Source: Candidatus Harrisonbacteria bacterium (GTDB lineage Bacteria > Patescibacteriota > Minisyncoccia > UBA6257 > 02-FULL-45-10c). From it: a stretch of 64,000 bases of DNA. A program made the translations under genes and the position numbers. Position 1 is the first letter of the stretch, and every line of letters starts with the position of its first letter. Shown here in pieces: positions 1,941 to 19,551 of the stretch. The notes below the pieces were generated by a model. That model was not told the origin of the DNA and searched no databases. It saw only the letters and a program-made list of their open reading frames with translations. Where the stretch lies: the NCBI GenBank assembly GCA_016214655.1, contig JACROC010000006.1:21377-85376 (forward strand), given 5' to 3'.

Positions 1941-3004
1941 TGAGAGTTTGTTTTTTAACTCATAATTTGAGATCGGATAATGGCGCGGGAGTTTTTTCTC
2001 TCCGGCTTATTCGGAGCATGCAGGATGCTTTGAGATGTAAAGTGGTGGCATTGACGGCGGTTCCCGATAAAATCAGGTTCTGGAGCGCATTTTTCCAATT
2101 ACGAAAGATTTTGAAAGGATGCGACATTATTCATGCGCTGGATGCCTATCCTTACGGCGTTATGGCAACATTAGCTGCCCTAGGATTAGGAAAGAAAATA
2201 ATCATTACTGCGGTAGGAACCGGCTCAATTAATCCGCTCTATAGGATTCCGTATTCGTGGTTATTGAAATATGTATATCGGCGGGCATATAAAATTACCG
2301 CGATCAGCCATTTTACCAAAAATGAAATATTAAAAAAAGTACCGGATATTCAAATTGAAGTAATTAATCACGGAGTTGATCTTGAAAAGTTTCAAAAAAA
2401 TATTGATACGCGTAAATGCGTCAATGCAGACCAATATAAGCCATATATATTGAGCGTGGGTTCGCTCCGCTGGCGGAAAGGATATCATCTGAGCATTCCG
2501 GCTTTTGCGCGGGTCGCGGCTGAATTCCCAAATTTGAAATACATTATTGTCGGAAAAAAATATGCGGCGGATTATTACCAAAGATTGCAAAAACTCATTT
2601 CCGATTATAAGCTGGAGGACAAGGTATTTTTACTTGATTCTGTAGATAATTTTGACGATCTTTTGTGTTTGTATCGGGGCGCAGAATTATTCTGCCTTTT
2701 ATCGCAAAATGCAAGGCATGATGTTGAGGGATTTGGCCTGGTATTTTTGGAAGCGGCAGCCGCTGGCCTTCCGGTAATCGGCAGTAAAGGCGGGGGCATT
2801 GAGGACGCCGTATTGGAGAATAAAAATGGATTTTTGGTGCCAGAACAAGACGAAGATGTGTTTGCGGGCGCGGTCATTAAGATTTTGAAAAATAAGGATT
2901 TGCGAAATGGGATGGTTAAGGAATCGCTTTCATTGGCCGAATCATCCCGATGGGACAAAAGATTGGATGAATATGCTGCTATTTATAAATCTATAATTCA
3001 TTAA
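1940..3004 (+). CDS. GT4-family glycosyltransferase
   Basis: C-terminal EGFGLVFLEAAAAGLPVIGSKGGGIEDAV (E-x7-E GT4 motif). ATG overlaps upstream stop (taATGa). Confidence 0.75.
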   Translation: MRVCFLTHNLRSDNGAGVFSLRLIRSMQDALRCKVVALTAVPDKIRFWSAFFQLRKILKGCDIIHALDAYPYGVMATLAALGLGKKIIITAVGTGSINPLYRIPYSWLLKYVYRRAYKITAISHFTKNEILKKVPDIQIEVINHGVDLEKFQKNIDTRKCVNADQYKPYILSVGSLRWRKGYHLSIPAFARVAAEFPNLKYIIVGKKYAADYYQRLQKLISDYKLEDKVFLLDSVDNFDDLLCLYRGAELFCLLSQNARHDVEGFGLVFLEAAAAGLPVIGSKGGGIEDAVLENKNGFLVPEQDEDVFAGAVIKILKNKDLRNGMVKESLSLAESSRWDKRLDEYAAIYKSIIH

Positions 3005-3047
3005 ATAAAGTTACGAAAATCTCCTTATTTTGGTTATACTCAATAAC

Positions 3048-4052
3048 ATGGCGCAAAAAAAGAAAGCATTGATTACCGGCATTACCGGACAAGACGGCTC
3101 TTATATGGCTGATTTTTTGCTGGCAAAGGGATATGAAGTGCATGGATTGGTAAGGCGCTCCTCAAGTTTTAATACCGGAAGAATTGATCATTTGTATGGC
3201 GGGACAGTGCAGGAGACGAAGGATTTTTTTATGCACTACGGCGATCTTACCGATACGAATTCACTGATTCATATTATTGATAAATGCCGTCCGGATGAGG
3301 TGTATCATTTTGGCGCTCAGAGCCACGTGCGCATCAGTTTTGATATTCCGGAATCTACTGCGCAAATTACCGGCGTATCTACCCTCAAGCTTCTGGAAGC
3401 GCTTCGTATTGTAAGTCCGAAAACAAAATTTTATCAGGCATCTTCTAGCGAAATGTTCGGTAAAGCAAGAGAGATACCCCAGAAAGAGACAACCCCGTTT
3501 TATCCCCGCAGTCCGTACGGCATTGCGAAAGTTTTTGCATACTGGACCGCAGTGAATTACCGGGAAGCGTACGGAATGTTTGCTTGCAACGGAATTCTGT
3601 TTAACCATGAATCGCCGCGCCGCGGTGAGAATTTCGTAACGCGGAAGATTACCACTGGTATTGCGAAAATTTTAGCCGGCAAACAAAAGAAAATTTATTT
3701 GGGAAATCTTGATGCCAAAAGGGATTGGGGATATGCCCCCGAATATATGGATGCTGCCTGGCGCATGCTTCAGCAGCCGGAGCCCGACGATTATGTTATC
3801 GCAACCGGTGAAACGCATACAGTGCGGGAATTTGTGGAGGAAGCGTTCCGTGTAGCGGGTATTGCGGATTGGAAGAATTATATTGAAGTTGATCCTAGAT
3901 ATTATCGTCCTGCGGAAGTTGATGTGCTGATTGGCGACGCCACTAAAGCAAAGCAGAAATTGGGATGGGAGCCGAAAGTAAAATTCAAGGAATTAGCGGA
4001 AATCATGGTGAAAGCTGATTGTAAAAAGCAAGGTATTGAGCTGAAGTCATGA
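3048..4052 (+). CDS. gmd: GDP-mannose 4,6-dehydratase
   Basis: [46 protein letters not shown]... classic Gmd N-terminus. Catalytic SSSEMFG / YGIAK motifs present. ATG at 3048 (the listed start at 3030 is TTG). Confidence 0.9.
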
Positions 4053-5251
4053 GAAAGATCGGATATCAAATCGGCGTTGGGTGCGCTGATATCAGTAAAA
4101 AAGAAAAAGAATATGTAAAAGACGTGTTGGAGCACGAGCGTCTTTCCTACGGGCCTTACACAAAGAAATTTGAAGAAGAATTCGCAAGAGCTCATGGGTG
4201 CAGATATGCCATTTTTTTGAATAGCGGCACTAGCGCGCTTCGGATTGCGGTAGCCGCTTTGAAAGAGATTGAGGGCTGGAAAGATGGGGATGAGGTATTG
4301 TGCCCCGCAGTTACCTTTGTTGCTTCTTCAAATGTGATTATTATGAACGGCTTAAAGCCGGTGTTTGTGGACGTTGATCCGCGGACATACAATATTGATC
4401 CGCGAAAGATTGAAGAGGAAATTACCAAGAAGACCCGTGCGATTATGGCGGTTAATTTGTTTGGACAGCCGGCGGATATGGATCCGATCTTAAAGATTGC
4501 TAAAAAACACAAGCTGAAAATTATTGAGGATTCCTGCGAAACAATGTTTGTGAAATACAAAGGTAGGCCGGCGGGTTCTTTCGGAGATATCAGCTGTTTT
4601 TCAACATATGTTGCGCATTTATTGGTAACTGGAGTAGGCGGATTTTCCTGCACGAGCAATCCAAAATACGCGGAAGTGATGAAGAGTTTGGCGAATCACG
4701 GCCGGGACGGGATTTATCTGCATATTGATGACGATAAAAATTTGAACAAACAGGGTCTATTTCAGGTAGTGTCCCGGCGATTCCATTTTATCCGCCTTGG
4801 TTATAGTTTTAGGGCGACCGAAATGGAAGCAGCTCTGGGTATAGGTCAGATGGAGCGGAAGGACCAGATTTTAGGGGCAAGGAAAAAGAATGCGGCGTAT
4901 TTGCTGAAAAAATTAAAGCCGCTTGCACAATATCTCCAGCTCCCGTGGCATCCCGGGCGGGTGGAACATTCATTTATGATGTTTCCGATTGTGGTGAAGC
5001 GGGGCGTTGGTATAAAAAAGCAAGACCTGGTGATGTACTTGGAAGAGCATAATGTGGAGACGCGCGACATGCTCCCGCTTTTAAGCCAGCCGGTGTATAA
5101 AAAATTATTCGGCGATATTGAAAACCAATATCCGGTGGCGAAATGGGTAAATGGTAATGGATTTTATATTGGCTGTCATCAAAAACTGACCAAGAAAGAA
5201 ATGGATTATATGGTTGCCGTTTTTGAAGATTTCTTTAAAAAACGAGTATGA
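4049..5251 (+). CDS. DegT/DnrJ/EryC1-family PLP enzyme, ColD-like (GDP-4-keto-6-deoxy-D-mannose 3-dehydratase-like)
   Basis: DegT-fold sequence. At the position where aminotransferases carry the Schiff-base Lys (SFHxxK...GEGG) this protein has ...[19 protein letters not shown]..., i.e. His instead of Lys, as in ColD (remembered as ...TFSSFYSHHIATMEGG...). The C-terminus NGFYIGCHQ resembles ColD GLFVGNHQ. Translationally coupled to gmd (ATGA overlap). Confidence 0.6.
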
Positions 5252-6474
5252 ACATTAAGAAAATTGCTGTCATTCTTCGCCGCCTGAATGTACGCGGCGG
5301 TACCCAGCGCCAGGCGCTTTCTTTGGCGCGTGAGTTGCAAAAGCGCGGCCATACCATCAAGCTCTATACGTTTCTTTATGACGCCGATCGTTCCTATGGG
5401 GATATGCTGAAGAATTTTGAGGTTGTTTCGCTGAATAAAGGCACCGGACCATCTTGGTTAAAATCAGTTCCATTAGTGCGGCATTTTTTGCAATTAGTGA
5501 ATGAAAATAAACTTGCAAAGGAGCTTGCGATGATGATGGATGACGATTTTGACTTACTCAATCCTCACGATCAGGTTAGTTATAAAGTTGCATTTTATTA
5601 CAAAAAATATAAAAGAAATGTTCCATCGGTGTGGCATATGAATGATTTGCCGCTTTTATGCTGGGCCTACGACCGCTTAATGGGTGCAGATGAGGCATTC
5701 CGTCAGTCGCTGGTAAAGCGGTTTCTGTATTATATTGCCGATCAATATGAAATCCGGAAATTCCTGCGGCATCAAGACGCGATTATTGTGGTAGATAGTT
5801 TTAATGTGGATCTTGTAAAAAAATATATGAATCTCGAAGCGATAACCGTGCGGAGCGGCCCAGATACGGAGCATTTCACTTTTACCAAAAGAACGCCGCC
5901 ATCAAAAAATATTAAAATTCTTACCAGCGGCATTTTGATGCCGCACCGGCGGTATCAGGATACTATCCGAGCGGTAAAGATGTTATTGGATGAAGGATGT
6001 GCTCCGACGCTGACCATTCTCGGAGATTATGAAAATGATAAGAAATACCATCAACTGCTTATTAATCTGGTAAATGAATTAGGGATTCAGAATAATGTAA
6101 AATTTTTGGGCAGAGTATCTGAAAAAGATTTATTGCGGGCTTATGCGGAGCACGATATCTACGTATTTCAGCACCATCTTCAGTCTGATGGATTGTCTCC
6201 GTTTGAGGCGGCAGTCTCTGGTTTGCCGATCCTGGTGTCGCGTACCGCCGGATGCCATGAAATGCTTACTGATCACGAGAACGCGCTCATTATAGAACCA
6301 AAAAATCCCGCAGATATTGCGGGATGCGTGAAGGAATTAGCTGATAATTCTGATTTATATATGAAATTGAGCAAGAACGGCGCAGAGTTTGTGTGTGAAA
6401 ATTTTTCTTGGGCGAAATATGCCGATGGGGTATTGCGAGTTTTTGAAAATGCAGCTAAAAGTTACAAGGAATAA
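5248..6474 (+). CDS. GT4-family glycosyltransferase
   Basis: N-terminal GT4 N-domain (RGGTQRQALSLARELQKRGHTIKLY). C-terminal LSPFEAAVSGLPILVSRTAGCHEML motif. Confidence 0.7.
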   Translation: MNIKKIAVILRRLNVRGGTQRQALSLARELQKRGHTIKLYTFLYDADRSYGDMLKNFEVVSLNKGTGPSWLKSVPLVRHFLQLVNENKLAKELAMMMDDDFDLLNPHDQVSYKVAFYYKKYKRNVPSVWHMNDLPLLCWAYDRLMGADEAFRQSLVKRFLYYIADQYEIRKFLRHQDAIIVVDSFNVDLVKKYMNLEAITVRSGPDTEHFTFTKRTPPSKNIKILTSGILMPHRRYQDTIRAVKMLLDEGCAPTLTILGDYENDKKYHQLLINLVNELGIQNNVKFLGRVSEKDLLRAYAEHDIYVFQHHLQSDGLSPFEAAVSGLPILVSRTAGCHEMLTDHENALIIEPKNPADIAGCVKELADNSDLYMKLSKNGAEFVCENFSWAKYADGVLRVFENAAKSYKE

Positions 6475-7352
6475 TATTTTTCCAGATATTTTTGCAAGGA
6501 AACTCGCCAATGAGGAAGTTTTGGTAATTTGGTATTCAGAAGTACGTTAGACGGCGCGCGCGGCACTTTAAAGAATTTGTCTTGATTAACGAAAGTAAGA
6601 CGGAATTTTTCCATTGGGATTTTAAGGTGGTTGGCGATTAATTTTAGTACGTCCAAAGTCGTTGCCTCTCCGGCATTAACTTCATTTACAAGGTGAAATA
6701 TCCCGCTTGCATAATTTCCGCCCAACAAATTGTTTAGTCCTTCGGCGAAGTCATGCGTCCAGGTGGGCGAACGCCATTGGTCTTGGATGACAGACAATTC
6801 GTTTTTTTCTTTAAGATCGTTTATAAATCGATCCACGAATGTTTGTCTTCCTCGTCCATAGAGCCACCCGGTCCGGACGATAAACCATTTTAGGAATGTC
6901 TCCGGATGGGCTGACGCAATCTCTTGTATTAAATCCTCCGCTTCTTTTTTCGCTTTTTGGTATGCGCTTATCGGCTGGCGATCGTCATTCTCTTTATATC
7001 CTTCAACTTTACAATTTTGAAAAGTTCCGCCGAATACTTCGGAAGTGCTGATCTGGACTACTATCGTCGGTTTTTTGAGCTCGATTAATGCCTCAAGGAT
7101 ATTTTTAATTCCGTCACGATTTACCGCATAGCATTTGGCTGGATTTTGTTCGCAAAAATTAATATTCAGAATAGCCGCGCAGTTGATAACGATATCGGGA
7201 CGATGCGTTTCAAGCTGGGCGTGGATGCTTTCCGGATCGGCGATTTCAATATCCTGGTGAGTGAGCTGGATCACTTCAAATTGAGATTTTAGGTGACCCG
7301 ACAATTCTTTTCCCAAAAGCCCACCCGCTCCCGTAATTAAGATCCTTTTCAT
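6462..7352 (-). CDS. NAD(P)-dependent sugar-nucleotide reductase/epimerase, RmlD-like (possible 4-reductase partner of the gmd/ColD-like branch)
   Basis: MKRILITGAGGLLGKELS... Rossmann GxxGxxG motif. Length (~296 aa) and layout match dTDP-4-dehydrorhamnose reductase-type SDRs. It is the only minus-strand gene in the first 20 kb. Confidence 0.55.
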   Translation of the reverse strand: MKRILITGAGGLLGKELSGHLKSQFEVIQLTHQDIEIADPESIHAQLETHRPDIVINCAAILNINFCEQNPAKCYAVNRDGIKNILEALIELKKPTIVVQISTSEVFGGTFQNCKVEGYKENDDRQPISAYQKAKKEAEDLIQEIASAHPETFLKWFIVRTGWLYGRGRQTFVDRFINDLKEKNELSVIQDQWRSPTWTHDFAEGLNNLLGGNYASGIFHLVNEVNAGEATTLDVLKLIANHLKIPMEKFRLTFVNQDKFFKVPRAPSNVLLNTKLPKLPHWRVSLQKYLEKYYSL

Positions 7353-7421: not shown

Positions 7422-8804
7422 ATGAAAAAAACTTTATTTTTTTCCGCTTATTCAACCATGGGATTCAGAAATTTTTTGGTGATTCCTAATGGCGTGGCTG
7501 CGCGGCTGGCGCAAAATAAAAACTTGGAATTAGTTTTCTTGATTCCGAGAGGATCCAATCTCGGCGCCTTGATTAAAAAATATAACCTTGGCCCGAATGT
7601 AATTGTTGAAGAGGTGGATACGAAAATGCAGAAATTTTCGCTTATTCAAAAAGCATTTTATTTTTTTTATTCCTATCTTATTTTTACCGGCACGACTCGC
7701 CTGCTTGCGACATTCGGGGCGCGGGCTGACGCGCCTCCGGCCGGAGGTAATAGATACGCCGCGCCTCTTAAAAGCTTGATTTCCAAAACATTCGGAAGAT
7801 CCCGGCGGATTAAAACCGTTTTTGTTCCGTGGGCGTATAAGAAGCTTTTTTTCAGGAAAGAACTTGCCGATCTTTTTGAAAAGTATCACCCAGATTTGGT
7901 ATTTTTATCCGGCATCGCCGCCTTTGAGGACGAGGAATTATTGGCGGAAGCGCAGCGTAGAAGGGTGAAGACGATTGGCATGCCTACAAACTGGGATCAC
8001 CTTAATAAGTATTATATTCCGGTTCATGCGGACTTTTTGCTGATCCAGAATGAGCCGATGAAAAAAGAGGCGATGGAATATCATGGTTATCGCGAAGATC
8101 AGATTGTGATGGTAGGTTTTCCGCAATTTGATTTTTATGTAATCGGAAAGGAATATATTAAGCCGCGTGCGGAGGTGTTTAAAAAATACGGGTTTGACCC
8201 GGATTCAAAACTCATCTTATTTATTTCCGGAAGCGTTTATGCTTTGGACGAACAGGATATTTTAAGGGCTATTTATGATCGGGCCTGGCGCGGAGAATTT
8301 GGATATCCGGTTAGCGTGATGGTGCGCCCATATCCAAATCGCGCCGACATCGTCAAATATAAGCACTTGGAGGGCTTGCCGGGAATTGCATTTTTTTGGG
8401 AAAATACTTCAACTAATTTTGAAAATATTATTGAATTTACAAATATCCTACGCCATGCCGATGCGGTTATTTCCGTATTTTCCACGACGGCGATTGAAGC
8501 TGCGATATTTGATAAGCCAACTATTACTATAGGATTTGACGGCTATAGTAAGCGGCCGATGCACCAATCTTTGGCGCGCATGGAGAAGCTTTCGCATTTT
8601 AAACACGTACTGGACACCGGGAGCGTGAAAGTTGCGCGAAGTTTTGAGGAATTATTCGCCCAACTAGGCCAATACTTGAAGTCGCCGGAAACTGATCGGG
8701 AACAGCGTAAACTGTTAATCGAAAAAATGTGTTACAAAATGGACGGCAATTCCACGCAGCGGATTGTTGAGTTTATTAATGCGCAACTAAGCGATGCAAA
8801 ATAG
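7422..8804 (+). CDS. TagF/TagB-like CDP-glycerol glycerophosphotransferase-family protein (paralog 1 of 5)
   Basis: Shares with four other ORFs the motifs YHPDLVFLSG...VKTIGMPTNWDHLN, KLILFISGS (compare the family motif ILYAPTWR) and STTAIEAAIFDKPTITIGFDGY (compare the family motif DYSSVxFDFxxLxKPII). About 450 aa. Confidence 0.5.
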   Translation: MKKTLFFSAYSTMGFRNFLVIPNGVAARLAQNKNLELVFLIPRGSNLGALIKKYNLGPNVIVEEVDTKMQKFSLIQKAFYFFYSYLIFTGTTRLLATFGARADAPPAGGNRYAAPLKSLISKTFGRSRRIKTVFVPWAYKKLFFRKELADLFEKYHPDLVFLSGIAAFEDEELLAEAQRRRVKTIGMPTNWDHLNKYYIPVHADFLLIQNEPMKKEAMEYHGYREDQIVMVGFPQFDFYVIGKEYIKPRAEVFKKYGFDPDSKLILFISGSVYALDEQDILRAIYDRAWRGEFGYPVSVMVRPYPNRADIVKYKHLEGLPGIAFFWENTSTNFENIIEFTNILRHADAVISVFSTTAIEAAIFDKPTITIGFDGYSKRPMHQSLARMEKLSHFKHVLDTGSVKVARSFEELFAQLGQYLKSPETDREQRKLLIEKMCYKMDGNSTQRIVEFINAQLSDAK

Positions 8805-10170
8805 GCCGGCTTCTTTTACTAAGAAATTTATCAGCGGCGAGATGTACTTCGGATTTTGGGGCATGATTTCCAAGGTATTAGGTTTGGGCAACACTTTTTT
8901 GACCGTCTCCTCATTAACGGTTTATCAGTATGGAGTATTGCAATTGATTCTTGCCACCTATGCGGCGTTCGCTGATCTGATGCTGATCGGCAGTCCGGTA
9001 GTCAGCAATGAGATTTTCCGTTTAGTCGGATCGGGAAAAGAGGAAAAAGCAAAACGCCTTTTTTTTGAATATAATAAGCTTTACGTATTAATCGCAATAT
9101 TTTTTTGGGGCTTATTCTTTTTTGGCGCGCCGGTTCTTTCATTCAGATATGGTCCGGATTTCATTCAATTCGCCAAGATTATTTCATTTTTATTTTTATT
9201 TGAGGTCTTCTTGGCTGCAGCGAAATTATTGCTTAAATTGAGGTTGAAGTTTAAAGTTGTCGCCAGCCGGTCTTCAATTGCTAAATTTGTCCAATTTTCT
9301 ATATTAAGCTATTTCTTTTTCTTTTCGCACCTTGGTTTGAGAGAGGTTTTGTTGTCTTTGGTAATTGCCATGTTTATCTCTCTTTTATCTTTAGTTCCGG
9401 CCGCAATAAAAGCTTATCGTCCATGGGTCGGTAGGGCCGCCTTAAACGAAAGGATTCTTTTGGGGATATTTTTTGCGCATGGTAAGTGGGATATATTAAG
9501 ATCTTTATTCTCAAGATTAACCTCAAGAATTGAGCCGTGGATACTCAAATTATTTGTCGGTACGGAAGCCGTTGCCATTTTTTCCGTGGCTAACACGATT
9601 GTTGGAACAATAAAAGACTATTTCCCGAATAATACGATAAATTCTCTCGCCGCCTTGGCCGTAGAAGATAAAGCCAGGTCCCAAAGAATTTTTTCTTATG
9701 GAATGAAATATATGTTTTTACTTTCAATCGCGGTATCTATTGCGGCGCTAATTGCGGTTCCTCCCTTTATTAGATTATTTTTTGCGAAATATAGCGCTTC
9801 TTTGCCGCTTTTCTACATCCTATTGTTTAATTTGCCGATGGGAATGCTGGCATTTATGCCGTCTATTTATTTACAAATTCTGAAGAAACAGAAGTTTTTA
9901 CTCTATCAAGGAGTCATAAGATCTATCATAGAAATTCCGTTAGTATTGATTCTGGTTATTCTATTTGGATTGTGGGGGTTAGTTGCAAAGGAAATATTAA
10001 TAAAGCTGATCATGTTCCCGATCACCCTCTGGTATTTTTTGAGATATCAAAATCTGGTATCCATAAAATGGGGCGAGTTATTTTCATTTACCGGAAACGA
10101 TAGAATATTCTTGGCGAATATGTATTCTAATTTTACTTCTTTGATTAAAATGAAATTGAATATAAAATGA
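8794..10170 (+). CDS. polytopic membrane protein, putative MOP/Wzx-type glycopolymer flippase
   Basis: 458 aa and about 12-14 hydrophobic segments throughout. Embedded between TagF-like paralogs. No soluble domain. Confidence 0.35.
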   Translation: MQNRPASFTKKFISGEMYFGFWGMISKVLGLGNTFLTVSSLTVYQYGVLQLILATYAAFADLMLIGSPVVSNEIFRLVGSGKEEKAKRLFFEYNKLYVLIAIFFWGLFFFGAPVLSFRYGPDFIQFAKIISFLFLFEVFLAAAKLLLKLRLKFKVVASRSSIAKFVQFSILSYFFFFSHLGLREVLLSLVIAMFISLLSLVPAAIKAYRPWVGRAALNERILLGIFFAHGKWDILRSLFSRLTSRIEPWILKLFVGTEAVAIFSVANTIVGTIKDYFPNNTINSLAALAVEDKARSQRIFSYGMKYMFLLSIAVSIAALIAVPPFIRLFFAKYSASLPLFYILLFNLPMGMLAFMPSIYLQILKKQKFLLYQGVIRSIIEIPLVLILVILFGLWGLVAKEILIKLIMFPITLWYFLRYQNLVSIKWGELFSFTGNDRIFLANMYSNFTSLIKMKLNIK

Positions 10171-10178
10171 ACTGATAT

Positions 10179-11531
10179 ATGAAAACTATATTTTTATTCA
10201 TACCGAATTACGTCTACTCCTCTGATTTTTTATGTACCGGATTTATAAGATGCCTGGTTTCCAGATTCCGGGTCGTTATTTTCGCGCCCGAGGTGATTTT
10301 GGAGAGCAATAAATTGCGGCTTCAATCGCCGAACCTGGTTTGTATAAAGTGGGAAACACAATATCCGCGATTTTGGAATTTATTCGGAAGATATTTGCGG
10401 TATTCTCTTATCAGGAAATATGATTTTGAACCGGTGATTCAGCGGAACCGCAAAAAAGGAATGAAGGATTGGCGGAGAAAAATATTGCGGTTTTTTTCGT
10501 ATGCGTTTCCGGCGGCGTGGCTGACGCCGGATCTTTTTTTTAAATTGGAAATTTTACTGGCCCCCAAATCCAAATTATTTTCAGAATACGCGGAAAAGTA
10601 TCAGCCGGCCATTGTTGTTACTCCTACTCCGGGATTTACTCATTTTGACGCCGAAGCGATTGTGCTGGCGAAAAAATCGCATCTTCCCACCGCTGCCATC
10701 GATTTTAGCTGGGACAACCTGCATAATGGCGGCCCGCATTTTAGAAGAGTCGATTATCTGATTGTTTGGAATAAAATTATTAAAAATACTGCCGTCAGGG
10801 AATACGGATATCCGGAAAACCGCGTTTTTGTTTCAGGAATAATGAGATTTGACCATTACTTTAAAAAACAGCCCGGCGAATTGTCCAGGGAAGAATTTCT
10901 TAAAAGTAAAAATTTAGACCCGAAGGAAAAGTTAATACTTATTACTACGGTCACTAAGGGCAATTATCCCAACGAGCATTTATTATTAAAAGATTTATTG
11001 GAAGCCAGAGAGAAAAATGTTTTTAACGGTTTCCCGAATATTCTGGTCAGAATGCACCCTAAAGAAGAAGTGAAAAATTTTACCGCTTTTCTGGATGCGG
11101 GAATCAGGGGTTTATGCGTTGAAAAAGCCGGTAAAGAAAAAGCAGTGGAATTGGGCAGTAATATTGAAATGGATGAGGAGGACCTGTTAAATCTCAAGCA
11201 TACTTTGGAATATTGCGATCTGAACATCAATTACTTATCCACTATTACCCTAGAAGCTTTTGTTTTTGACAGGCCGGTTATTAATATCAACTATCCGCCG
11301 GAATATCATTTGGGCTATACCTTCAGCCATTATAAGCCGTTGATTGAAATGAAATCTGTCCGGCTGGCATATAGTTTTGAAGAGCTGATTAACGATATCA
11401 ATATTTATTTTAAAAATCCCAATCTGGAACATCGGGAACGGCAGGCGGCTTTTGAGAAATATATCAAGTTTTCCGACGGCCTTAGCTACAAGAGGAGCGT
11501 TGATTTTTTGCATTCCATATTATATAAATAA
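10179..11531 (+). CDS. TagF/TagB-like glycerophosphotransferase-family protein (paralog 2, most divergent)
   Basis: YQPAIVVTPTPGFTHFDAEAIVLAKKSHLPTAAIDFSWDNLHNGG, KLILITTVTKGNYP and STITLEAFVFDRPVININYP align with the paralog motifs. Confidence 0.45.
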   Translation: MKTIFLFIPNYVYSSDFLCTGFIRCLVSRFRVVIFAPEVILESNKLRLQSPNLVCIKWETQYPRFWNLFGRYLRYSLIRKYDFEPVIQRNRKKGMKDWRRKILRFFSYAFPAAWLTPDLFFKLEILLAPKSKLFSEYAEKYQPAIVVTPTPGFTHFDAEAIVLAKKSHLPTAAIDFSWDNLHNGGPHFRRVDYLIVWNKIIKNTAVREYGYPENRVFVSGIMRFDHYFKKQPGELSREEFLKSKNLDPKEKLILITTVTKGNYPNEHLLLKDLLEAREKNVFNGFPNILVRMHPKEEVKNFTAFLDAGIRGLCVEKAGKEKAVELGSNIEMDEEDLLNLKHTLEYCDLNINYLSTITLEAFVFDRPVININYPPEYHLGYTFSHYKPLIEMKSVRLAYSFEELINDINIYFKNPNLEHRERQAAFEKYIKFSDGLSYKRSVDFLHSILYK

Positions 11532-11550
11532 CCAAGTGTTTAAGCGGTTT

Positions 11551-12768
11551 ATGCGGGATAAACAGGTGCAGAATTTGGTTGGGCAAGAATTGAGGCGGCA
11601 GCAGCTTTCGCTTGATTTAATTGCTTCGGAAAATTACGTTTCTCCCCAGATACTGAAGATTTTAGGATCGCCGCTGGTTAATAAATATTCCGAGGGTTAT
11701 CCGGGAAAGCGATATTATCCCGGCAATGAATTTTATGACCTGATTGAAAAATTGGCCCAAGACCGGGCCAGGAAGGTTTTTAATCTGTCTCACCGGAGCT
11801 GGGATGTTAACGTTCAGCCGTATTCCGGTTCGCCTGCAAATCTGGCGGTTTATTTCGCTTTAATGGATCCGGGTGATGTTTTGATGGGTATGAATTTGAT
11901 GTCTGGCGGCCATTTGACCCATGGCCATAAAGTGAATTTTTCCGGCAAAATTTATAAATCGGTCCAATACGGCGTTAATGAACAAACCGGGTTGGTAGAT
12001 TATTCCAAGGCGGCAAATCTAGCCAGAAAATATAAACCAAAGGTTATTGTTTCCGGGTTAACGGCTTATCCCAGAAAAATTAATTTCAAAAAATTCGGCC
12101 AGATTGCCAAATCGGTCGGCGCATATCATTTGGCGGACATTTCACACATTGCCGGCTTGGTAGCGGCTGGTTTGCACCAGTCCCCATTTCATTATAGTGA
12201 CGTAGTAATGACCACAACTCATAAGACTTTGCGCGGTCCAAGGGGCGCGATAATTTTTGCCAGGAAAGAATTATCTGAAAAAATAGATAGGGCGGTTTTT
12301 CCCGGGATTCAGGGCGGCCCGCACAATAACGTAGTTGCCGCCAAAGCAGTGATGTTTTTTGAGGCGCTAAAGCCGGAATTTAAGCGGTATCAGCGGCAAG
12401 TTGTAAAAAACGCCGCTGCTCTGGCTGGTAATTTAAGGGATTTAGGATTTAAATTAGTTACCGGCGGAACGGATAATCATTTGATTCTCGTTGATCTCAG
12501 GGATTCTTTGATTGACGGGTTAACCGCGGAGAAAATACTGGAAAAAAATAATATTACTGCGAATCGCAATGCTATACCGGGTGACTATTCTCCGTTTAAG
12601 CCGTCGGGCATCAGAATCGGCACGCCAGCGGTCACCACTCGTAGGATGGGCGAGTCGGAAATGTCTGAAATTGCCGGATTCATTTATCTGGCTTTAATTA
12701 AAAAACGAGATGTTAAAAAGGAAGTTGAAAAATTATGCAGAAGGTTTCCCTTGGAATATGGATATTAA
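11551..12768 (+). CDS. glyA: serine hydroxymethyltransferase
   Basis: LDLIASENYVSPQILKILGSPLVNKYSEGYPGKRYYPG... and the PLP-lysine region VVMTTTHKTLRGPRGAIIF. ATG at 11551 (the listed start at 11452 is upstream of the previous gene's stop). Confidence 0.9.
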   Translation: MRDKQVQNLVGQELRRQQLSLDLIASENYVSPQILKILGSPLVNKYSEGYPGKRYYPGNEFYDLIEKLAQDRARKVFNLSHRSWDVNVQPYSGSPANLAVYFALMDPGDVLMGMNLMSGGHLTHGHKVNFSGKIYKSVQYGVNEQTGLVDYSKAANLARKYKPKVIVSGLTAYPRKINFKKFGQIAKSVGAYHLADISHIAGLVAAGLHQSPFHYSDVVMTTTHKTLRGPRGAIIFARKELSEKIDRAVFPGIQGGPHNNVVAAKAVMFFEALKPEFKRYQRQVVKNAAALAGNLRDLGFKLVTGGTDNHLILVDLRDSLIDGLTAEKILEKNNITANRNAIPGDYSPFKPSGIRIGTPAVTTRRMGESEMSEIAGFIYLALIKKRDVKKEVEKLCRRFPLEYGY

Positions 12769-13654
12769 AAATTTTATTGTAAATTATCATTATGTTGAGG
12801 ATCCCCGGCCGGATTTTTCCGGCATTTGGCCGTGCTCTATTAGCGAATTTGAGCGTCAAATAAAATTCTTATCCGGTAATTTTTCTATAGTGTCGGCTGT
12901 TGACGTTTATAGGGCATCCCAGGAGAATAGCGGGGGTAATTATTGCGCCATTACTTTTGATGACGGCTTGAGGGATCAATATCAGAATGCGGTCCCGATT
13001 TTGAAAAAATATAACGCGACCGCGACTTTTTTTATTATTACTGATACCCTTAATGGATTTTTGCCACCCGCCCACCAGATCCACTTTTTGCTTTCCAAAG
13101 TTCCGGCAGAAAAATTAATTGATTTATTCAACGATTTTCAGAACCAATATCAGATACCCAAAGATCGGAGAGTTAATCCTAAAAAAAGACTTTTTGAGGA
13201 TATTTTGATTGCCAATTTTAAAGAAACTATGATGTCGGCGCCCCAAGACCTGACAGAACCGTTTTTGGGACATTGTTTTGAAAATCTTTCTTTGGATCCG
13301 GAAAAGTTCGGGCGGGGAACCTTTATGGATGAGCCGGAAATTCTCAGTTTAAGAAACACCGGTTTTTCCATCGGCAGCCACGCCCATAAACATTATTTGG
13401 AAGAAAGCATTAATCAAAAATATTTTCCTAGCGAGGTACGGGATTCTAAAAAAATTCTCGGGAGACTCCTCGGAGAAGATCCGACGATTTTCTCTTATCC
13501 CCATGGCCGGCACAATAATGAGGTTATCGCCCTTTTAAAAGAAGAAGGATTTAAACACGCTTTTATCACGGATCCGCGTCCCCCGAGGGCTGGAGACAAT
13601 CCGTATCTTATACCGAGACTGGATACCAACGATATTAAAAAATTAATTTATTAA
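12758..13654 (+). CDS. polysaccharide deacetylase (NodB-homology, CE4)
   Basis: NodB motif 1 AITFDDGLRDQ and His motif IGSHAHKH. ATG at 12758 overlaps the glyA stop. Confidence 0.7.
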   Translation: MDIKNFIVNYHYVEDPRPDFSGIWPCSISEFERQIKFLSGNFSIVSAVDVYRASQENSGGNYCAITFDDGLRDQYQNAVPILKKYNATATFFIITDTLNGFLPPAHQIHFLLSKVPAEKLIDLFNDFQNQYQIPKDRRVNPKKRLFEDILIANFKETMMSAPQDLTEPFLGHCFENLSLDPEKFGRGTFMDEPEILSLRNTGFSIGSHAHKHYLEESINQKYFPSEVRDSKKILGRLLGEDPTIFSYPHGRHNNEVIALLKEEGFKHAFITDPRPPRAGDNPYLIPRLDTNDIKKLIY

Positions 13655-13656: not shown

Positions 13657-14454
13657 ATGGTTTCAGCAGTTTTAATAACCAGCAATGCTTTACGGCATCA
13701 TTTTGTCGCCAATTATCTTTCTGACCATTTGAATTTGGCGGGCGTGGTATCTGAAGCCAAGCTTGCTTCTCCTCAGGGCGCCACCGTGGCGGAGGATGAA
13801 ATCATAAAAACGCATTTGCAGGAATTGAAAGAAACAGAGAAAGAATTTTTCGGTGGATATGAAAATTTTAAAATTCCAAAAAGCAGCGTATTAGAAATCG
13901 CGCGCGGCACTTCTAATGACCCCGCGGTTTTTGAGTGGGTTAAAAATAAAAATCCGGAATACCTGATTTTATTCGGATCCTCAATAATCAAAGACCCCCT
14001 TTTGAGTTATTTTAAGGATAAGGTGATTAATATGCATTTGGGTTTGTCCCCGTATTATCGCGGCTCTGGAACTAATTTTTGGCCCCTGGTATTTCGCGAA
14101 CCGGAGTGTGTCGGCGCAACTATTCATTTGGCGACGCTTGAGGTTGATGCCGGCGCAATCTTGGGTCAAGTGAGGCCGGACTTTGTTCCTGGTGATAATT
14201 GCCACACTTTGGGTTTTAAAACCGTTATTGCCGGAACGCAGTTACTGGTAAAGATCATTGGGGCGTATAATAAAGGAAATCTGGCGGGGCATAGACAAAA
14301 TCTGTCTATTGGCAAAGTATTTAAGAAAAAGAATTTTAATGCCGAAGCAGTGTTAGCTATGAGGAAAAATTTTGAAACCGGAATGATTGAAGAATATTTA
14401 AATGATCAGGCAGATCGCAATCAACAATATCCAATAATTTCCCCATTTTTATAA
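13657..14454 (+). CDS. formyltransferase-domain protein, sugar N-formyltransferase-like
   Basis: Formyl_trans_N catalytic signature NMHLGLSPYYRG (compare N-x-H-x-S-LLP-x-x-RG) and GATIHLATLEVDAGAILGQ (catalytic Asp). 265 aa with no tRNA-binding C-terminal domain, so not Fmt. Confidence 0.6.
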   Translation: MVSAVLITSNALRHHFVANYLSDHLNLAGVVSEAKLASPQGATVAEDEIIKTHLQELKETEKEFFGGYENFKIPKSSVLEIARGTSNDPAVFEWVKNKNPEYLILFGSSIIKDPLLSYFKDKVINMHLGLSPYYRGSGTNFWPLVFREPECVGATIHLATLEVDAGAILGQVRPDFVPGDNCHTLGFKTVIAGTQLLVKIIGAYNKGNLAGHRQNLSIGKVFKKKNFNAEAVLAMRKNFETGMIEEYLNDQADRNQQYPIISPFL

Positions 14455-14487: not shown

Positions 14488-15855
14488 ATGCACCCACAAC
14501 CAGCAAAAACTATTTTTCTTACTAGCTTCCACGTGCTTATTTCCAGAAATATCCTCTCGACACCAATTTTAAAGATGTTGACTGATAAAGGCGTACAAAT
14601 AGTTATCTTGGTACCAGATTACAAGAAAGAATTTTTTGAAAAGAACTTTTCCGGACCAAACATTATCATTGAGGGGATAGAGGCATATGGGTTCTCAAAG
14701 AGTTTTATTGGCTTATTCTTTAAACGCTTGTCGCGTGTTATTCTTGATACGGATACAGTAAGGATTAGAATGAAGTATAAGCTCGTTGTAGAGAGAAAAT
14801 TTATATATTATTTTTTATTTTTTGTGCCGGCGAAGATTTTAGGGAAATCCAAAACTGTAATTAGCCTGATAAGATTTTTAGATTATAAACTGCGCTCGAA
14901 GCCGGGATATTTCCTGGATTTATTTAATAGATATCATCCTGATCTTATAGTCGCCACTGATGTGAATAATGAGAATGATGTTGCATTACTTCAGGATGCA
15001 AAGGCCAAAAAAATGCCGACAGCTGCTATTGTGCGGTCGTGGGATAATTTAACAAATTTTCTAATGAGAAGCACACCCGATTGGTTGGTTGTTGCAAATG
15101 AGATTATGAAATCACAAGTAATTACATATCATGGCCTCAGGGCGGAGAATGTTTTGGTAACCGGGATGCCGCATTATGACCGCTATATCCGCGGTGCTAC
15201 GATGAGTCGTAAAGAATTTTTTGATTCCATTGACGCAGATCAAAGGAAGAAATTAATTTTATATGTGCCAGTTGCGGATTATCGGGTGAAAGAAAATGAT
15301 ATTGATTCGTATATTATACGCTTACTTTCAAGTCTAGATGTAAATACTCTTGTCCGTTTTCCCCCCGCAGCTACGGTGGCAGTGGATAAAACTCAATTTC
15401 CGGAGAATGTGATCTTTGACGAGCCGGGAGTTCGATTCGGCGGCAAGGGAGATAGCGAGATGACGAAAGAGGATGACGATGGGTTGATTAATATTCTTTC
15501 TTATTCTGACGTGGTTGTATCCGGTCCGGGCACGATGAATATTGATGCGGCGATTTTTGATAAACCAATTGTGCTTGTGAATTTATATCCCACCCAGCGT
15601 ATTCAATTGGAGGGTATCAAAGAATACGGATATACACATATCCAAAATATATTAAAAACCGGCGGAATTCGTATGGCGACGAATAAAGAAGAACTTTTTG
15701 ATTTTATCAATCTGTATTTTAAAAATCCGAGTTTGGATGCTGATGGCAGGCGGAGAATTACCAGAGAACAGTGTTACAAATTAGATGGCAGAAGTAGCGA
15801 ACGCGTTACTAACCATATTTTAAGATTTTTGTCTGAAAATGAAATCATTGCTTAA
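14488..15855 (+). CDS. TagF/TagB-like glycerophosphotransferase-family protein (paralog 3)
   Basis: YHPDLIVATDVNNENDVALLQDAKAKKMPTAAIVRSWDNLTNF, KLILYVPVADYR, SGPGTMNIDAAIFDKPIVLVNLY and the C-terminal REQCYKLDGRSSERV shared with paralogs. Confidence 0.5.
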   Translation: MHPQPAKTIFLTSFHVLISRNILSTPILKMLTDKGVQIVILVPDYKKEFFEKNFSGPNIIIEGIEAYGFSKSFIGLFFKRLSRVILDTDTVRIRMKYKLVVERKFIYYFLFFVPAKILGKSKTVISLIRFLDYKLRSKPGYFLDLFNRYHPDLIVATDVNNENDVALLQDAKAKKMPTAAIVRSWDNLTNFLMRSTPDWLVVANEIMKSQVITYHGLRAENVLVTGMPHYDRYIRGATMSRKEFFDSIDADQRKKLILYVPVADYRVKENDIDSYIIRLLSSLDVNTLVRFPPAATVAVDKTQFPENVIFDEPGVRFGGKGDSEMTKEDDDGLINILSYSDVVVSGPGTMNIDAAIFDKPIVLVNLYPTQRIQLEGIKEYGYTHIQNILKTGGIRMATNKEELFDFINLYFKNPSLDADGRRRITREQCYKLDGRSSERVTNHILRFLSENEIIA

Positions 15856-16773: not shown

Positions 16774-17715
16774 ATGCAAAGAGTAAAGATCGCGGGTTTA
16801 GAGGTTGGAGATGGCGCCCCCGTTTTTATGATTGCCGAGATTGGAATTAACCATAATGGCAGTTTAGATGTTGTTAAAAAATTAATTGATGCCGCTGCTG
16901 AAGCGGGGTGTCAAGCGGTAAAGTTCCAAAAGCGCACAATTCCAGTTATTTATTCTGAAGCCGAGCTCCAGAAGCCTCGTGAAGTGCCCGCTGATGTGAT
17001 CGTGCGAGCTCTGAAGAGGGGGGTTCTTTCTAAAGAGGCAGTTGTTCGCCTTGTCGACTCGGATCTTCGGCAGACAACAAATGGCGATTTGAAGCTGGCG
17101 TTGGAGTTGACGGCATCAGAGTATGCCGAAATTGATGTATATTGTAAAACAAAAAACATGCTTTGGTTCGCTTCTCCTTGGGATGAGGATAGCGTTGATT
17201 TTTTGGATCAATTTAATCCCTGTTGTTATAAAGTGGCATCTGCGTCATTAACTGATGACGGATTATTGGAGTATATTCGTTCTAGGGGGTGTCCCGTGAT
17301 TCTTTCAACTGGTATGAGTACTCTTGAGCAGATTGATCATGCGATTGATGTCCTTGGAGAGGATGATCTGGTATTACTGCATTGCGTTTCTACTTATCCA
17401 GCAGAGTACAAAGAACTTAATCTCCGCGTAATTCCGGTTTTAAAAGCAAGATATGATATTCCGGTAGGATATAGCGGTCATGAGCGAGGTATCCATTCGT
17501 CAGCTCATGCAGTTGCGTTAGGCGCTTGTGCAGTCGAAAGACATGTGACCCTTGATCGTATAATGTGGGGTAGTGATCAGGCTGCTAGTATTGAGCCGAA
17601 AGGATTGGAGTCATTAGTAAAAGAGATTCGTCATTTAGAGGAGGCATTGGGAGATGGAGAGAAGCGATTACTTGATTCAGAAGTTCCTATTATGAAGAAA
17701 CTGCGACGGAAATAA
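16774..17715 (+). CDS. neuB: NeuB-family nonulosonic acid (sialic-acid-type) synthase, no SAF domain
   Basis: APVFMIAEIGINHNGSLDVVKKLIDAAAEAGCQAVKFQKRT... is the NeuB/PseI/SpsE TIM-barrel signature. 313 aa, ends before any SAF domain. Carries a ~45-aa insert after KFQKRT. RBS gaggagg upstream. Confidence 0.75.
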   Translation: MQRVKIAGLEVGDGAPVFMIAEIGINHNGSLDVVKKLIDAAAEAGCQAVKFQKRTIPVIYSEAELQKPREVPADVIVRALKRGVLSKEAVVRLVDSDLRQTTNGDLKLALELTASEYAEIDVYCKTKNMLWFASPWDEDSVDFLDQFNPCCYKVASASLTDDGLLEYIRSRGCPVILSTGMSTLEQIDHAIDVLGEDDLVLLHCVSTYPAEYKELNLRVIPVLKARYDIPVGYSGHERGIHSSAHAVALGACAVERHVTLDRIMWGSDQAASIEPKGLESLVKEIRHLEEALGDGEKRLLDSEVPIMKKLRRK

Positions 17716-17818: not shown

Positions 17819-18556
17819 ATGCAAAATCTCTTTTCTTTAAATGGGAAAGTGATAATTCTTACTGGCGGCAGCGGGTTTTTGGGATCATATTATATGCGAG
17901 CTTTGCGTGATGCGGGCGCTATCGTTATCGATTGGGATTTGAAATCTGGCATTGATATTACCGATGATCAATCAGTCGCGGCAGCAATTGAGAATGTTTT
18001 GGAGAAATATGGAAGAGTTGATGGATTGGTCAATAATGCGGCGCTGGATGCAAAACCACATTCTGATCCAGCGAGTAATTGGAAGCCGTATGAAGAATTT
18101 CCAATGGATCTTTGGGAGAGAGAATTGGCGGTAAATCTGACGGGTGCAATGAGGGTGACTAAGGTGGTTGTCCCGTACATGATGCGTCAGCGTTTCGGCT
18201 CTATTATTTTTGTAGCTTCTGATTTGGCTTTAATTGCGCCAAATAATTCTATCTACGATGCGGGTCGCTTTAAGGATATTGCTTATATCACTTCAAAGGC
18301 TGGTCTTCTTGGCCTGATGCGAGCATGGGCTTCGCGACTCGGGTCATACAATGTCCGAGTAAATGCGTTCGTCCCCGGCGGAGTTTTTAACGGCCATTCG
18401 GAAGAATTTGTAAAAAAGAATGGGGCGCTTAACATGTTGGGGCGTATGGCTGAGCCAAACGAGTACAGTGGCGCAATTATCTTTTTACTTTCCGATGCCT
18501 CAACATTTATGACTGGTTCATGTATGGTGATGGATGGAGGGAGGACTGCATGGTAA
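17819..18556 (+). CDS. short-chain dehydrogenase/reductase (SDR)
   Basis: TGGSGFLGSYY (TGxxxGxG) and YITSKAGLLGL (YxxxK). Confidence 0.75.
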   Translation: MQNLFSLNGKVIILTGGSGFLGSYYMRALRDAGAIVIDWDLKSGIDITDDQSVAAAIENVLEKYGRVDGLVNNAALDAKPHSDPASNWKPYEEFPMDLWERELAVNLTGAMRVTKVVVPYMMRQRFGSIIFVASDLALIAPNNSIYDAGRFKDIAYITSKAGLLGLMRAWASRLGSYNVRVNAFVPGGVFNGHSEEFVKKNGALNMLGRMAEPNEYSGAIIFLLSDASTFMTGSCMVMDGGRTAW

Positions 18557-18561
18557 ATAAA

Positions 18562-19551
18562 ATGAAGTTCCTTTTGTGCGGAATAGGGTCAATGGGGCAG
18601 AGGCATTTTCGGAATTTGAATGGATTGAGGCAGGAAATTGCACTTTTTCGGTCAAAACAAACAACCACTCCTTTTATTGAAAAGTTTTTTGAGGAGCAAA
18701 GAAAGAAAGGATTATTAATCCCTCTTTTTTATGACCTAGAGCTAGCATTGACAAGTTTTCGGCCGGATGCAGTTGTGGTTGCAAATCCTAATTCTCTGCA
18801 TATGCCCATTTCGTTGGCTGGCGCAAGAGCTGGTTGCCATCTTTTTATTGAAAAGCCAGTTTCCCATACGATGGATCAGATGGACGAATTGACAGAATTA
18901 CTCAAGAAGAAGAATTTAATTGCAATGGTCGGCTATAATCTTCGGTTTCATCCGCTTTTACAATTGATGAAAAGGATGTACGAATCCGGAGAAATCGGGC
19001 GCGCTGTATCTGTCCATGTTGAAGTTGGAGAAAATATTGAGGATTGGCATCCGTGGGAAGATTATAGAGACGCATACGCATGCTGGAAAAGCGGCGGTGG
19101 CGGAGTAACGTTATGTTTTAGCCACGACATAGATTATCTTTATTGGTTTTTTGGAATGCCAGAACGCGTGCAGGCTATTGGGGGTAAAAAGGCTCCGCTT
19201 GGCGGAGATGCCGAGGATACTATAAAGGCACTTATGGAATTTCGCGGCGGGCTAATTGCCTCGCTCCACATGGATTATTGGCAGAGACCAAAAAAGCGGA
19301 CATTTGAAATTATAGGAACACTTGGAAGGATGATGTGGGATTGCGGCGCAGGGACATTGGTGCTGGAAAAAAGAGATCTAATCAAAAAAACTTTTGACGT
19401 CCCAAAGAATTTCGATAGGAATGATATGTTTATTTCTGAGATGAAAAATTTTATTTTATCCGCAGAAAATAAAGAAAATCTACTTATTCCATTTGAAGAA
19501 GGGGTTGATGTTCTTAGGATTTGTATTGACATTAAGAAAAAAATTTATTAA
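18562..19551 (+). CDS. Gfo/Idh/MocA-family NAD(P)-dependent oxidoreductase
   Basis: MKFLLCGIGSMGQRHFRNL Rossmann N-terminus and the family-typical EKP motif (LFIEKPVSHT). ATG at 18562 just after the SDR stop. Confidence 0.7.
   Translation: MKFLLCGIGSMGQRHFRNLNGLRQEIALFRSKQTTTPFIEKFFEEQRKKGLLIPLFYDLELALTSFRPDAVVVANPNSLHMPISLAGARAGCHLFIEKPVSHTMDQMDELTELLKKKNLIAMVGYNLRFHPLLQLMKRMYESGEIGRAVSVHVEVGENIEDWHPWEDYRDAYACWKSGGGGVTLCFSHDIDYLYWFFGMPERVQAIGGKKAPLGGDAEDTIKALMEFRGGLIASLHMDYWQRPKKRTFEIIGTLGRMMWDCGAGTLVLEKRDLIKKTFDVPKNFDRNDMFISEMKNFILSAENKENLLIPFEEGVDVLRICIDIKKKIY

Follow-up and report, generated by a model that had tools for sequence, protein, structure and literature searches.

Which sugar can be made by a gene cassette in which a GDP-mannose 4,6-dehydratase is coupled to a DegT-family "aminotransferase" that has a histidine in place of the catalytic lysine? 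The question is raised by a 64-kb stretch of DNA (64,000 nucleotides, in the following the window) that is part of a 103-kb contig from a metagenome-assembled genome (MAG) of Candidatus Harrisonbacteria, a lineage of the candidate phyla radiation (CPR, Patescibacteria). The cassette sits inside a large surface-glycan locus. It consists of gmd, encoding GDP-mannose 4,6-dehydratase (3048-4052, + strand; TIGR01472 gmd equivalog 525 bits at a cutoff of 415, PF16363 480 bits; alternative TTG start at 3030), a gene for a 400-residue His-type DegT-family enzyme dependent on pyridoxal or pyridoxamine phosphate (PLP/PMP; 4049-5251, + strand; PF01041 320 bits over residues 14-391), a predicted family 4 glycosyltransferase (GT4; 5248-6474, + strand; PF00534 90 bits, together with PF13439) and an RmlD-family extended short-chain dehydrogenase/reductase (SDR), predicted to be an NAD(P)H-dependent C4 reductase (6462-7352, - strand; PF04321 183 bits). 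The gmd stop codon and the DegT start codon share a 4-bp ATGA overlap and the DegT/GT4 junction is a further one (5248-5251). Since both plus-strand junctions are of this kind, gmd, DegT and GT4 are translationally coupled, which bears out what a sequence-only reading of this locus had stated for the first two genes. The GT4 gene and the RmlD-like gene run towards each other and overlap by 13 bp. We propose that the four genes probably make a GDP-linked 3,6-dideoxy surface sugar through a variant colitose pathway.

The centre of this proposal is the DegT-family protein, which is most likely a GDP-4-keto-6-deoxy-D-mannose 3-dehydratase of an undescribed clade, distinct from those of ColD, E1 and SpnQ, as predicted from its sequence. 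Its active-site motif starts at residue 183 and carries His190 (codon 4616-4618, + strand) at the site of the Schiff-base lysine of aminotransferases. In HMMER alignments His190 is positioned opposite Lys186 of the Caulobacter GDP-perosamine synthase Per (FSFFGNKIITTGEGG), His220 of the 3-dehydrase E1 (SFYPAHHITMGEGG) and His188 of ColD, the 3-dehydratase of the colitose pathway (SSFYSHHIATMEGG). None of the three alignments puts a lysine at this position, so the exchange of Lys for His that had been read from the letters alone is real. Since both His190 and the preceding Ala189 are invariant in all 120 of the closest homologs (59-100% identity), His190 is not a chance substitution. The FSTY block and the GVGG motif are likewise invariant or nearly so across these homologs.

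Further features were compared in an alignment of the recovered ColD sequences with E1 and Per, in which ColD partials of at most 264 residues cover the active-site half; a near-full E. coli ColD sequence was obtained through alignment with the DegT protein of a related locus (L101, see below). Besides the histidine, two features are common to the family of the window enzyme, ColD and E1 and are missing from Per, namely a Cys two residues past the cofactor-binding Asp and an insertion. The Asp is part of the motif E160-D161-S162-C163-E164-T165 (4526-4543, + strand) with the signature ED.C[ED], which reads EDSCET in the window enzyme, EDNCES in ColD, EDCCDA in E1 and EDAAEA in Per; E160, D161, C163 and E164 are invariant in all 120 homologs. 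The insertion, a loop of ∼20 residues (residues 216-243; 4694-4777, + strand), follows a conserved HG or WG in the window enzyme, ColD and E1 and is absent in Per. N216, H217, G218, R219 and Y223 of this loop are invariant and D227-D229 nearly so among the 120 homologs. In addition, the C-terminal NGFYIGCHQ block, whose resemblance to ColD had already been recognised, aligns with NGLFVGNHQ of ColD. Val196 of the GVGG motif and the near-invariant acidic DDD at residues 227-229 are found neither in ColD nor in E1 or Per.

In E1 and SpnQ a [2Fe-2S] cluster is held by four cysteines and an external reductase is required, whereas ColD is cluster-free, its enamine intermediate is hydrolysed and PMP is regenerated from glutamate (PMC8987622). 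The aligned loop of the window enzyme has none of the cysteines carried by the E1 loop WGRDCYCAPGCDNTCKK, and E1 C251, C253, C257 and C261 all face residues other than Cys. Only two cysteines are invariant in the family, C163, which is also present in the cluster-free ColD, and C183. E1 Cys193, which aligns with C163, is a cluster ligand. A cryptic Fe–S site formed by C163, C183 and C376 was considered and rejected, as C376 is Ser in 27 of the 120 homologs and C163 also occurs in ColD. No E3/FNR-type reductase or ferredoxin gene is present in the window. A thioredoxin-reductase-like Pyr_redox_2 gene (40505-41539) was rejected as an E3 analogue, since it adjoins a DsbA-like thioredoxin-fold gene and is not of the FNR type. 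Because the E1 cysteine loop is missing and the window holds no E3/FNR-type reductase, we predict a ColD-type chemistry that is independent of a reductase.

The likeness to ColD suggested by the sequence-only reading thus holds for the predicted chemistry, but not for ancestry. The enzyme reaches no equivalog cutoff in NCBIfam (best model RfbH/E1 with 257.5 bits, cutoff 423). In a rough neighbour-joining (NJ) tree, built from 218 columns of a partial region with 100 bootstraps and few outgroups, the family, the ColD clade and the E1 clade are separated, each with 100% bootstrap support. This is enough to reject membership in the ColD or E1 orthologous groups, the branching order among the three clades being too rough to call. 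For comparison, the ColDs of E. coli, Yersinia and C. jejuni share 62-67% mutual identity (PMC10440746).

The substrate is indicated by gene context, which we sampled in 80 related loci (labelled L with a number), classing open reading frames (ORFs) by BLAST against reference proteins and accepting a true Gmd at 300 bits or more. A true Gmd is adjacent to the His-type gene in 48 loci, near in 5 and fused to it in 4 (57/80 together). The fusions (L011:8975-11176, L016:7770-10010, L023:2761-4998 and L030:8327-10567) are single ORFs of ∼740 residues, in frame, with short linkers and without stop codons or N's, and the DegT part lacks a separate start codon. For L011 and L030, the separate ∼400-residue "aminotransferase" of NCBI starts at an internal codon in the C-terminal helix of Gmd, which hides the fusion, and the JGI record of a truncated fusion is one gene (P0103, PF16363 and PF01041). 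Long ORFs in L077 and L085 were rejected as fusions, being artefacts of open 5' ends. Because of fusion, adjacency and translational coupling to Gmd, we predict with high confidence that GDP-4-keto-6-deoxy-D-mannose is the substrate of the Gmd-linked members, including the window enzyme. In Aenigmarchaeota and related archaea (L017:3180-4148, L018:11212-12180, L020, L040) the His-type gene is followed by a 4,6-dehydratase that stays below the gmd cutoff (177 bits, against 415) and reaches nearly the same score on the dTDP-glucose dehydratase model (152 bits), and some members of the family may act on a different nucleotide sugar.

In the pathway that we propose, Gmd would, by family assignment, convert GDP-D-mannose to GDP-4-keto-6-deoxy-D-mannose. 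For the second step, active-site anatomy and gene linkage suggest that the His-type enzyme, having no Lys for an internal aldimine, would bind PMP non-covalently; PMP and the C4 keto group would form a ketimine, and His190 would serve as general base and acid while the C3 hydroxyl is expelled. The resulting enamine would be hydrolysed as in ColD to GDP-4-keto-3,6-dideoxy-D-mannose and ammonia, without an Fe–S cluster or an E3-type partner, and PMP would be restored from an amino-acid donor, probably L-glutamate. Synteny suggests that the RmlD-family SDR would then reduce C4 with NAD(P)H to yield a GDP-3,6-dideoxyhexose, and the co-translated GT4 would add the dideoxyhexose to the growing glycan.

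The reductase of this scheme is not the canonical one. The window contains no gene of the Fcl/ColC type, in agreement with the earlier impression that ColC was not obvious, and neither a cupin epimerase nor rmlA, rmlB or rmlC was found in it. The RmlD-like gene is the sole extended-SDR sugar reductase candidate near the cassette; its description as the only SDR-type candidate holds in this narrower sense, since the window also contains a classical SDR (17819-18556) and a GFO/IDH/MocA oxidoreductase (18520-19551). The RmlD-like protein falls into a sharply delimited CPR subfamily of ∼60 homologs (44-54% identity, 254-365 bits), the next sequences showing at most 35% identity, where RmlD-named sequences begin. 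A metagenome scan with the protein gave only one close relative (L088), the 10 remaining loci being weak or unrelated matches. The subfamily was examined in seven contexts (the window, L001/L006, L088, L099, L100, L101 and L102). An ortholog of the window GT4 (50-86% identity) faces the gene tail-to-tail in every one of them, in five gmd and a His-type DegT gene are located within 5 kb, and the L100 context stops at a contig edge. Neither rmlA/B/C nor a cupin epimerase nor ColC is present in any of the seven contexts.

L101 is the most telling of these contexts for the function of the neighbours. Here (2752-7218) gmd, 67% identical to that of the window, is followed by a DegT gene of the ColD clade and by the RmlD-like gene, towards which the GT4 ortholog is oriented. 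The only strong PDB hits of this DegT protein are ColD entries (210 bits; ∼35% identity to E. coli ColD, with half of the sequence compared), and it carries EDNCES, FSFFVGHHLSTIEGG and RAHGWDRNLPK. L101 represents a natural exchange between the two dehydratase lineages. The swap argues that the new family does the job of ColD, that the RmlD-like enzyme acts downstream and that the GT4 uses the product. By the same comparison, true ColD relatives also pair with RmlD-family reductases in place of ColC. The predicted role of the RmlD-like gene as C4 reductase of the pathway is thus supported by comparative genomics.

Across the 80 loci an SDR adjoins the pair of gmd and His-type gene in most cases, but its type varies between lineages. 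The partner is a strong Fcl/ColC-like match in 13 loci, a more divergent Fcl/ColC-like protein in 10, RmlD-like in 11, of the 6vo6 type in one and another SDR with weak matches in 19; 7 loci have a low-scoring Gmd-like dehydratase/SDR with a true Gmd not adjacent, and in 19, many of them on short contigs, no partner SDR was seen. The Pacearchaeota locus L003 shows the canonical order of gmd, His-type DegT and an Fcl-like gene (Fcl model 274 bits, E. coli GDP-fucose synthetase 184 bits). RmlD-like partners occur in CPR genomes only. In 10 further loci the RmlD-like gene is located directly upstream of gmd in the same orientation, with overlapping or closely spaced ORFs, and 3 of these are beside fusions; gmd-linked RmlD-like partners elsewhere reach 170-192 bits on TIGR01214. 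No epimerase was found in the RmlD-type loci inspected. Because a 4-keto reductase recurs as partner and would be useless if C4 were aminated, the His-type enzymes are predicted to release a 4-keto, i.e. a dehydratase, product and not a 4-amino sugar. B12-binding radical-SAM genes adjoin the cassette in a Pacearchaeota (L003:7546-8817) and a Paceibacterota locus (L086:7253-8740 and 12229-13200), and their products may C-methylate the deoxysugar or modify it by another radical reaction.

Several observations weigh against the proposed pathway, and they concern both the reductase and the dehydratase. The dehydratase assignment could be right and the RmlD-like protein nevertheless an ordinary dTDP-4-dehydrorhamnose reductase or an enzyme of another pathway, with a ColC/Fcl-like enzyme encoded elsewhere in the genome and L-colitose as product. 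The RmlD-like gene is on the strand opposite to gmd, DegT and GT4, its best characterised relatives are RmlDs (1vl0, 103 bits; ∼30-35% identity to solved RmlDs), and characterised RmlD enzymes use dTDP-L-sugars and not GDP-D-sugars. In L099 the RmlD-like/GT4 pair occurs without gmd or DegT within 5 kb. Fcl-like partners are found in 23 of the 80 loci of the family, and gene absences were judged within 64 kb of the 103-kb contig. On the other hand, the window protein reaches only 168.4 bits on the TIGR01214 rmlD model, below the cutoff of 224, and the subfamily is named by NCBI merely "NAD(P)-dependent oxidoreductase". It keeps G8, G11 and G14 of the GxxGxxG motif as well as T103, Y131 and K135, but relative to RmlD four motifs are altered in the subfamily (STDY to S[ST]SE, YGxxK to YQxxK, G.N.F to R.TF and RPxxS to RAxxN; 92-100% conserved), and the change of G.N to R.T recurs in other gmd-linked RmlD-like partners. 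Together with the seven contexts free of rmlA/B/C, the 10 loci in which an RmlD-like gene lies upstream of and co-oriented with gmd and the L101 operon, this makes an ordinary RmlD rather unlikely.

For the DegT protein the alternative to a 3-dehydratase is an atypical C4 aminotransferase of the Per lineage, which would lead to GDP-perosamine or a related 4-amino sugar that is perhaps later N-formylated. The top-scoring solved protein is indeed an aminotransferase, itself an enzyme of GDP-sugars (PDB sequence scores: Per 201, E1 197 and ColD 182 bits), and identity is ∼26% to ColD, 31-34% to E1 and 28-34% to Per, thus at most 34% to characterised 3-dehydratases. Per is also the best structural match of the AlphaFold2 model (pLDDT 88.6; Foldseek TM 0.86/0.94, followed by E1 with 0.89/0.85 and ColD with 0.86/0.88), in which residues 188-195, the loop of the catalytic His, are unreliable. 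The nearest neighbour in the small sample of the NJ tree is a Lys-bearing paralog from L066, and the dehydratase function may have arisen independently, with possible differences in detail. A Formyl_trans_N gene (13657-14454) and a serine hydroxymethyltransferase gene are located in the same glycan locus, 9 kb downstream. Moreover, His can support a transamination half-reaction, as in the regeneration of PMP by ColD, and SpnQ, a His-type enzyme, transaminates under some conditions (PMC8987622).

The sites taken from a preprint as switches between dehydratase and aminotransferase, which are not strictly conserved among dehydratases, give a mixed picture (10.1101/2021.09.04.459008). E1 Asp194 corresponds to Glu164, as it does to Glu in ColD, E1 Tyr217 to Tyr187, which is kept in the family, and E1 His220 to the invariant His190. 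Less favourable to a dehydratase are the invariant Met310 in place of E1 Phe345, Ala189 in place of ColD Ser187, although E1 likewise has Ala, and, outside the sites of the preprint, the invariant Val196 that replaces the Glu of the widely conserved GEGG/MEGG motif. The ColD variant S187N/H188K (PDB entry 3GR9) is reported to have become an aminotransferase.

Best hits to Per had been regarded in the sequence-only reading as speaking against a ColD-like assignment, and by raw score Per does come first. This does not overturn the assignment, because the Lys of Per faces an invariant His and the dehydratase insertion and the ED.C[ED] motif, both present here, are missing from Per. The characterised wild-type His-for-Lys enzymes of this fold are all 3-dehydratases; a 2022 review lists only E1, ColD and SpnQ as characterised, homologs from urdamycin and ossamycin pathways being uncharacterised (PMC8987622). 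A 4-keto reductase, the partner in most loci, would have no role with an amine at C4, a ColD-clade enzyme takes the place of the family in L101, and the syntenic relative L001 does not keep the formyltransferase near its cassette. We therefore consider an aminotransferase quite improbable. A 3-dehydratase of the E1/SpnQ type with an external electron-transfer partner is highly improbable, as the resemblance of the C-terminal half to E1 (84 bits, compared to 57 for ColD and 50 for Per), the Ala-His instead of Ser-His, Tyr187 at the site of E1 Tyr217 and the alignment of C163 with E1 Cys193 are opposed by the loss of all four E1 loop cysteines with only two invariant Cys left, by a window without an E3/FNR-type or ferredoxin gene in which the Pyr_redox_2 gene is not FNR-type, and by linkage to Gmd and not to a CDP- or dTDP-glucose dehydratase.

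If the His-type enzyme is a 3-dehydratase, the configuration of the product depends on the reductase. ColC and Fcl are bifunctional epimerase-reductases, whereas RmlD is a simple C4 reductase. Since neither the window nor the inspected RmlD-type loci yielded an epimerase, and since the reductase is of the RmlD type and not ColC, no inversion at C5 is predicted. The product may thus keep the D configuration, as GDP-3,6-dideoxy-D-arabino-hexose (tyvelose) or its D-lyxo C4 epimer, and not be L-colitose; this is the least secure point of the scheme, and epimerisation may still come from a cryptic activity or from an epimerase gene at another place. Of the earlier proposal, the GDP-3,6-dideoxyhexose branch is hence supported, while the designation "colitose-type" may be wrong. 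GT4 is a retaining family of which many members use GDP-alpha-D-mannose, and the GT4 partner would fit an alpha-D-configured donor, although this is a weak inference. In vitro, ColD-type C3-dehydratase and stand-alone C4 reductases of C. jejuni form GDP-3,6-dideoxy-D-arabino- and D-lyxo-heptoses (PMC10440746). The term "GDP-tyvelose" had zero occurrences in the full-text literature searched, and no report of such a GDP-linked 3,6-dideoxy-D-hexose from nature was found there. As a tentative possibility, CPR bacteria and DPANN archaea could possess a third lineage of His-type 3-dehydratases, cluster-free, diverged independently and sometimes fused to Gmd, which in Harrisonbacteria, Paceibacteria and Sungbacteria would be combined with an RmlD-family reductase and no epimerase to form GDP-tyvelose or its C4 epimer, installed by a retaining GT4 on the surface of ultrasmall episymbionts.

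The family was detected with two family-specific peptide patterns in at least 460 species-representative GTDB genomes, nearly all of them MAGs. Most are CPR bacteria, including Paceibacteria, Sungbacteria, Saccharibacteria, Peregrinibacteria, Magasanikbacteria and Doudnabacteria, or DPANN archaea, including Pacearchaeota, Aenigmarchaeota, Micrarchaeota and Nanoarchaeota; scattered carriers belong to Acidobacteriota, Planctomycetota, Omnitrophota, Armatimonadota, Zixibacteria and others. Annotations are generic ("DegT/DnrJ/EryC1/StrS family aminotransferase") or guessed (perosamine synthetase, dTDP-4-amino-4,6-dideoxygalactose transaminase). Full-text literature searches yielded no paper linking colitose or dideoxyhexoses to Patescibacteria, CPR or DPANN.

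Other DegT paralogs accompany the family in some genomes. In L066 the His-family gene (10001-11212) is immediately preceded by a Lys-bearing DegT gene without the insertion (8797-9912; CFSLNVIKLITTGEGG). This paralog may be a clue to the origin of the His clade or a Per-like competitor for the Gmd product. Further His-type paralogs are found in genomes carrying the family (L028:14838-16148, - strand; L073:16083-17402, + strand; L008:5644-6879, + strand). Two of them, from archaeal MAGs (Bilamarchaeaceae, Micrarchaeota), are of the E1 type and have the complete cysteine loop WGRDCWC...C..R, and the third, a variant (FYGSHMITAGGSGG), adjoins a non-Gmd dehydratase. Two different 3-dehydratase systems thus occur together in some of these small genomes.

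With ColD (WbdK) of E. coli O55 and Y. pseudotuberculosis and its heptose homologs of C. jejuni HS:5/HS:11, the window enzyme shares the fold, the His-for-Lys exchange, the ED.CE motif, the ∼20-residue insertion after HG, the lack of an Fe–S cysteine loop, the coupling to gmd and the C-terminal block NG[FL][FY][IV]G.HQ, and a ColD-clade enzyme fills the equivalent place in L101. It differs from ColD by Ala189-His190 instead of Ser187-His188, by GVGG instead of MEGG and by an insertion sequence of its own with the (nearly) invariant acidic DDD; it forms its own clade at ∼26% identity, mostly in CPR and DPANN and sometimes fused to Gmd, and its partner in the window is an RmlD-family reductase and not ColC. 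E1 (AscC/DdhC/RfbH; CDP-6-deoxy-L-threo-D-glycero-4-hexulose 3-dehydrase) resembles it in the C-terminal half, in the Ala-His dyad, in the Tyr three residues before the His, in the GRD that opens the insertion and in RfbH being the best NCBIfam model. However, the score is below the RfbH cutoff, the [2Fe-2S] loop cysteines and an E3 gene are missing, and linkage is to Gmd, thus to GDP-sugars, and not to CDP-glucose enzymes. Per (RfbE; Caulobacter crescentus, 3BN1) is the best solved match in sequence and structure and has the same predicted substrate, but contains Lys186 preceded by Asn185, lacks the insertion and the Cys of ED.C[ED], and forms an amino sugar for which a reductase is unneeded.

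The SDR (6462-7352) in turn has the PF04321 architecture, the GxxGxxG motif and the catalytic S/T, Tyr131 and Lys135 in common with RmlD, but it is below the equivalog cutoff, is altered in four motifs and is linked to gmd, a His-type 3-dehydratase gene and GT4, never to rmlA/B/C. The GDP-3,6-dideoxyheptose pathways of C. jejuni have a similar outline, with a GDP-sugar 4,6-dehydratase, a C3-dehydratase that depends on PLP, and a separate C4 reductase; they differ in their heptose substrates, a true ColD ortholog and a native C5 epimerase, and their reductases are not described there as RmlD-family (PMC10440746).

The 3,6-dideoxyhexoses belong to the rare sugars and, in Gram-negative pathogens that carry them, dominate the immune response. 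To our knowledge, two routes lead to these sugars, the CDP-linked E1/E3 route and the GDP-linked ColD/ColC route. At least 460 species-level genomes encode the clade described here, under the label "aminotransferase", and its members most likely carry out ColD chemistry throughout CPR and DPANN, whose life is host-attached and yet whose surface glycans are essentially uncharted. Chemistry and pathway logic are known; the enzyme clade is undescribed and the reductase family a different one, in lineages of uncharted glycobiology. The pathway is modular, with one dehydratase pairing with at least four reductase types and one reductase/GT4 module with either of two dehydratase lineages, which predicts new GDP-dideoxy sugars and offers parts for the enzymatic synthesis of modified sugars. 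It also points to a systematic mis-annotation, in that dehydratases are listed as aminotransferases, Gmd fusions are split and the RmlD-like reductases are probably not RmlD.

The surrounding glycan locus contains five TagB/TagF-like paralogs of the CDP-glycerol glycerophosphotransferase family (PF04464, 37-57 bits), all on the + strand (7422-8804, 10179-11531, 14488-15855, 22493-23809 and 26224-27567), and comparable genes border the cassette in L001, L099, L100 and L102. They suggest a teichoic-acid-like or polyol-phosphate-containing surface polymer. Two NeuB-family synthases, two CMP-sugar cytidylyltransferases (PF02348) and a UDP-GlcNAc 2-epimerase (nonulosonic-type genes at 16774-17715, 21670-22407 on the - strand, 29385-30566, 30559-31278 and 32225-33346) look like two separate nonulosonic-acid modules of a sialic or legionaminic type. 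Genes for serine hydroxymethyltransferase, polysaccharide deacetylase and a weak Formyl_trans_N match (45 bits) are grouped (11452-12768, 12710-13654 and 13657-14454) and may provide one-carbon units for an N-formylated amino sugar, but are an unlikely partner of the His-type enzyme. Just downstream of the glycan locus, a gene at 42829-47046 (+ strand) encodes a 1405-residue protein with an N-terminal hydrophobic segment, whose sole Pfam match is to two Lamin Tail Domains (81 bits) and which is probably a large surface protein.

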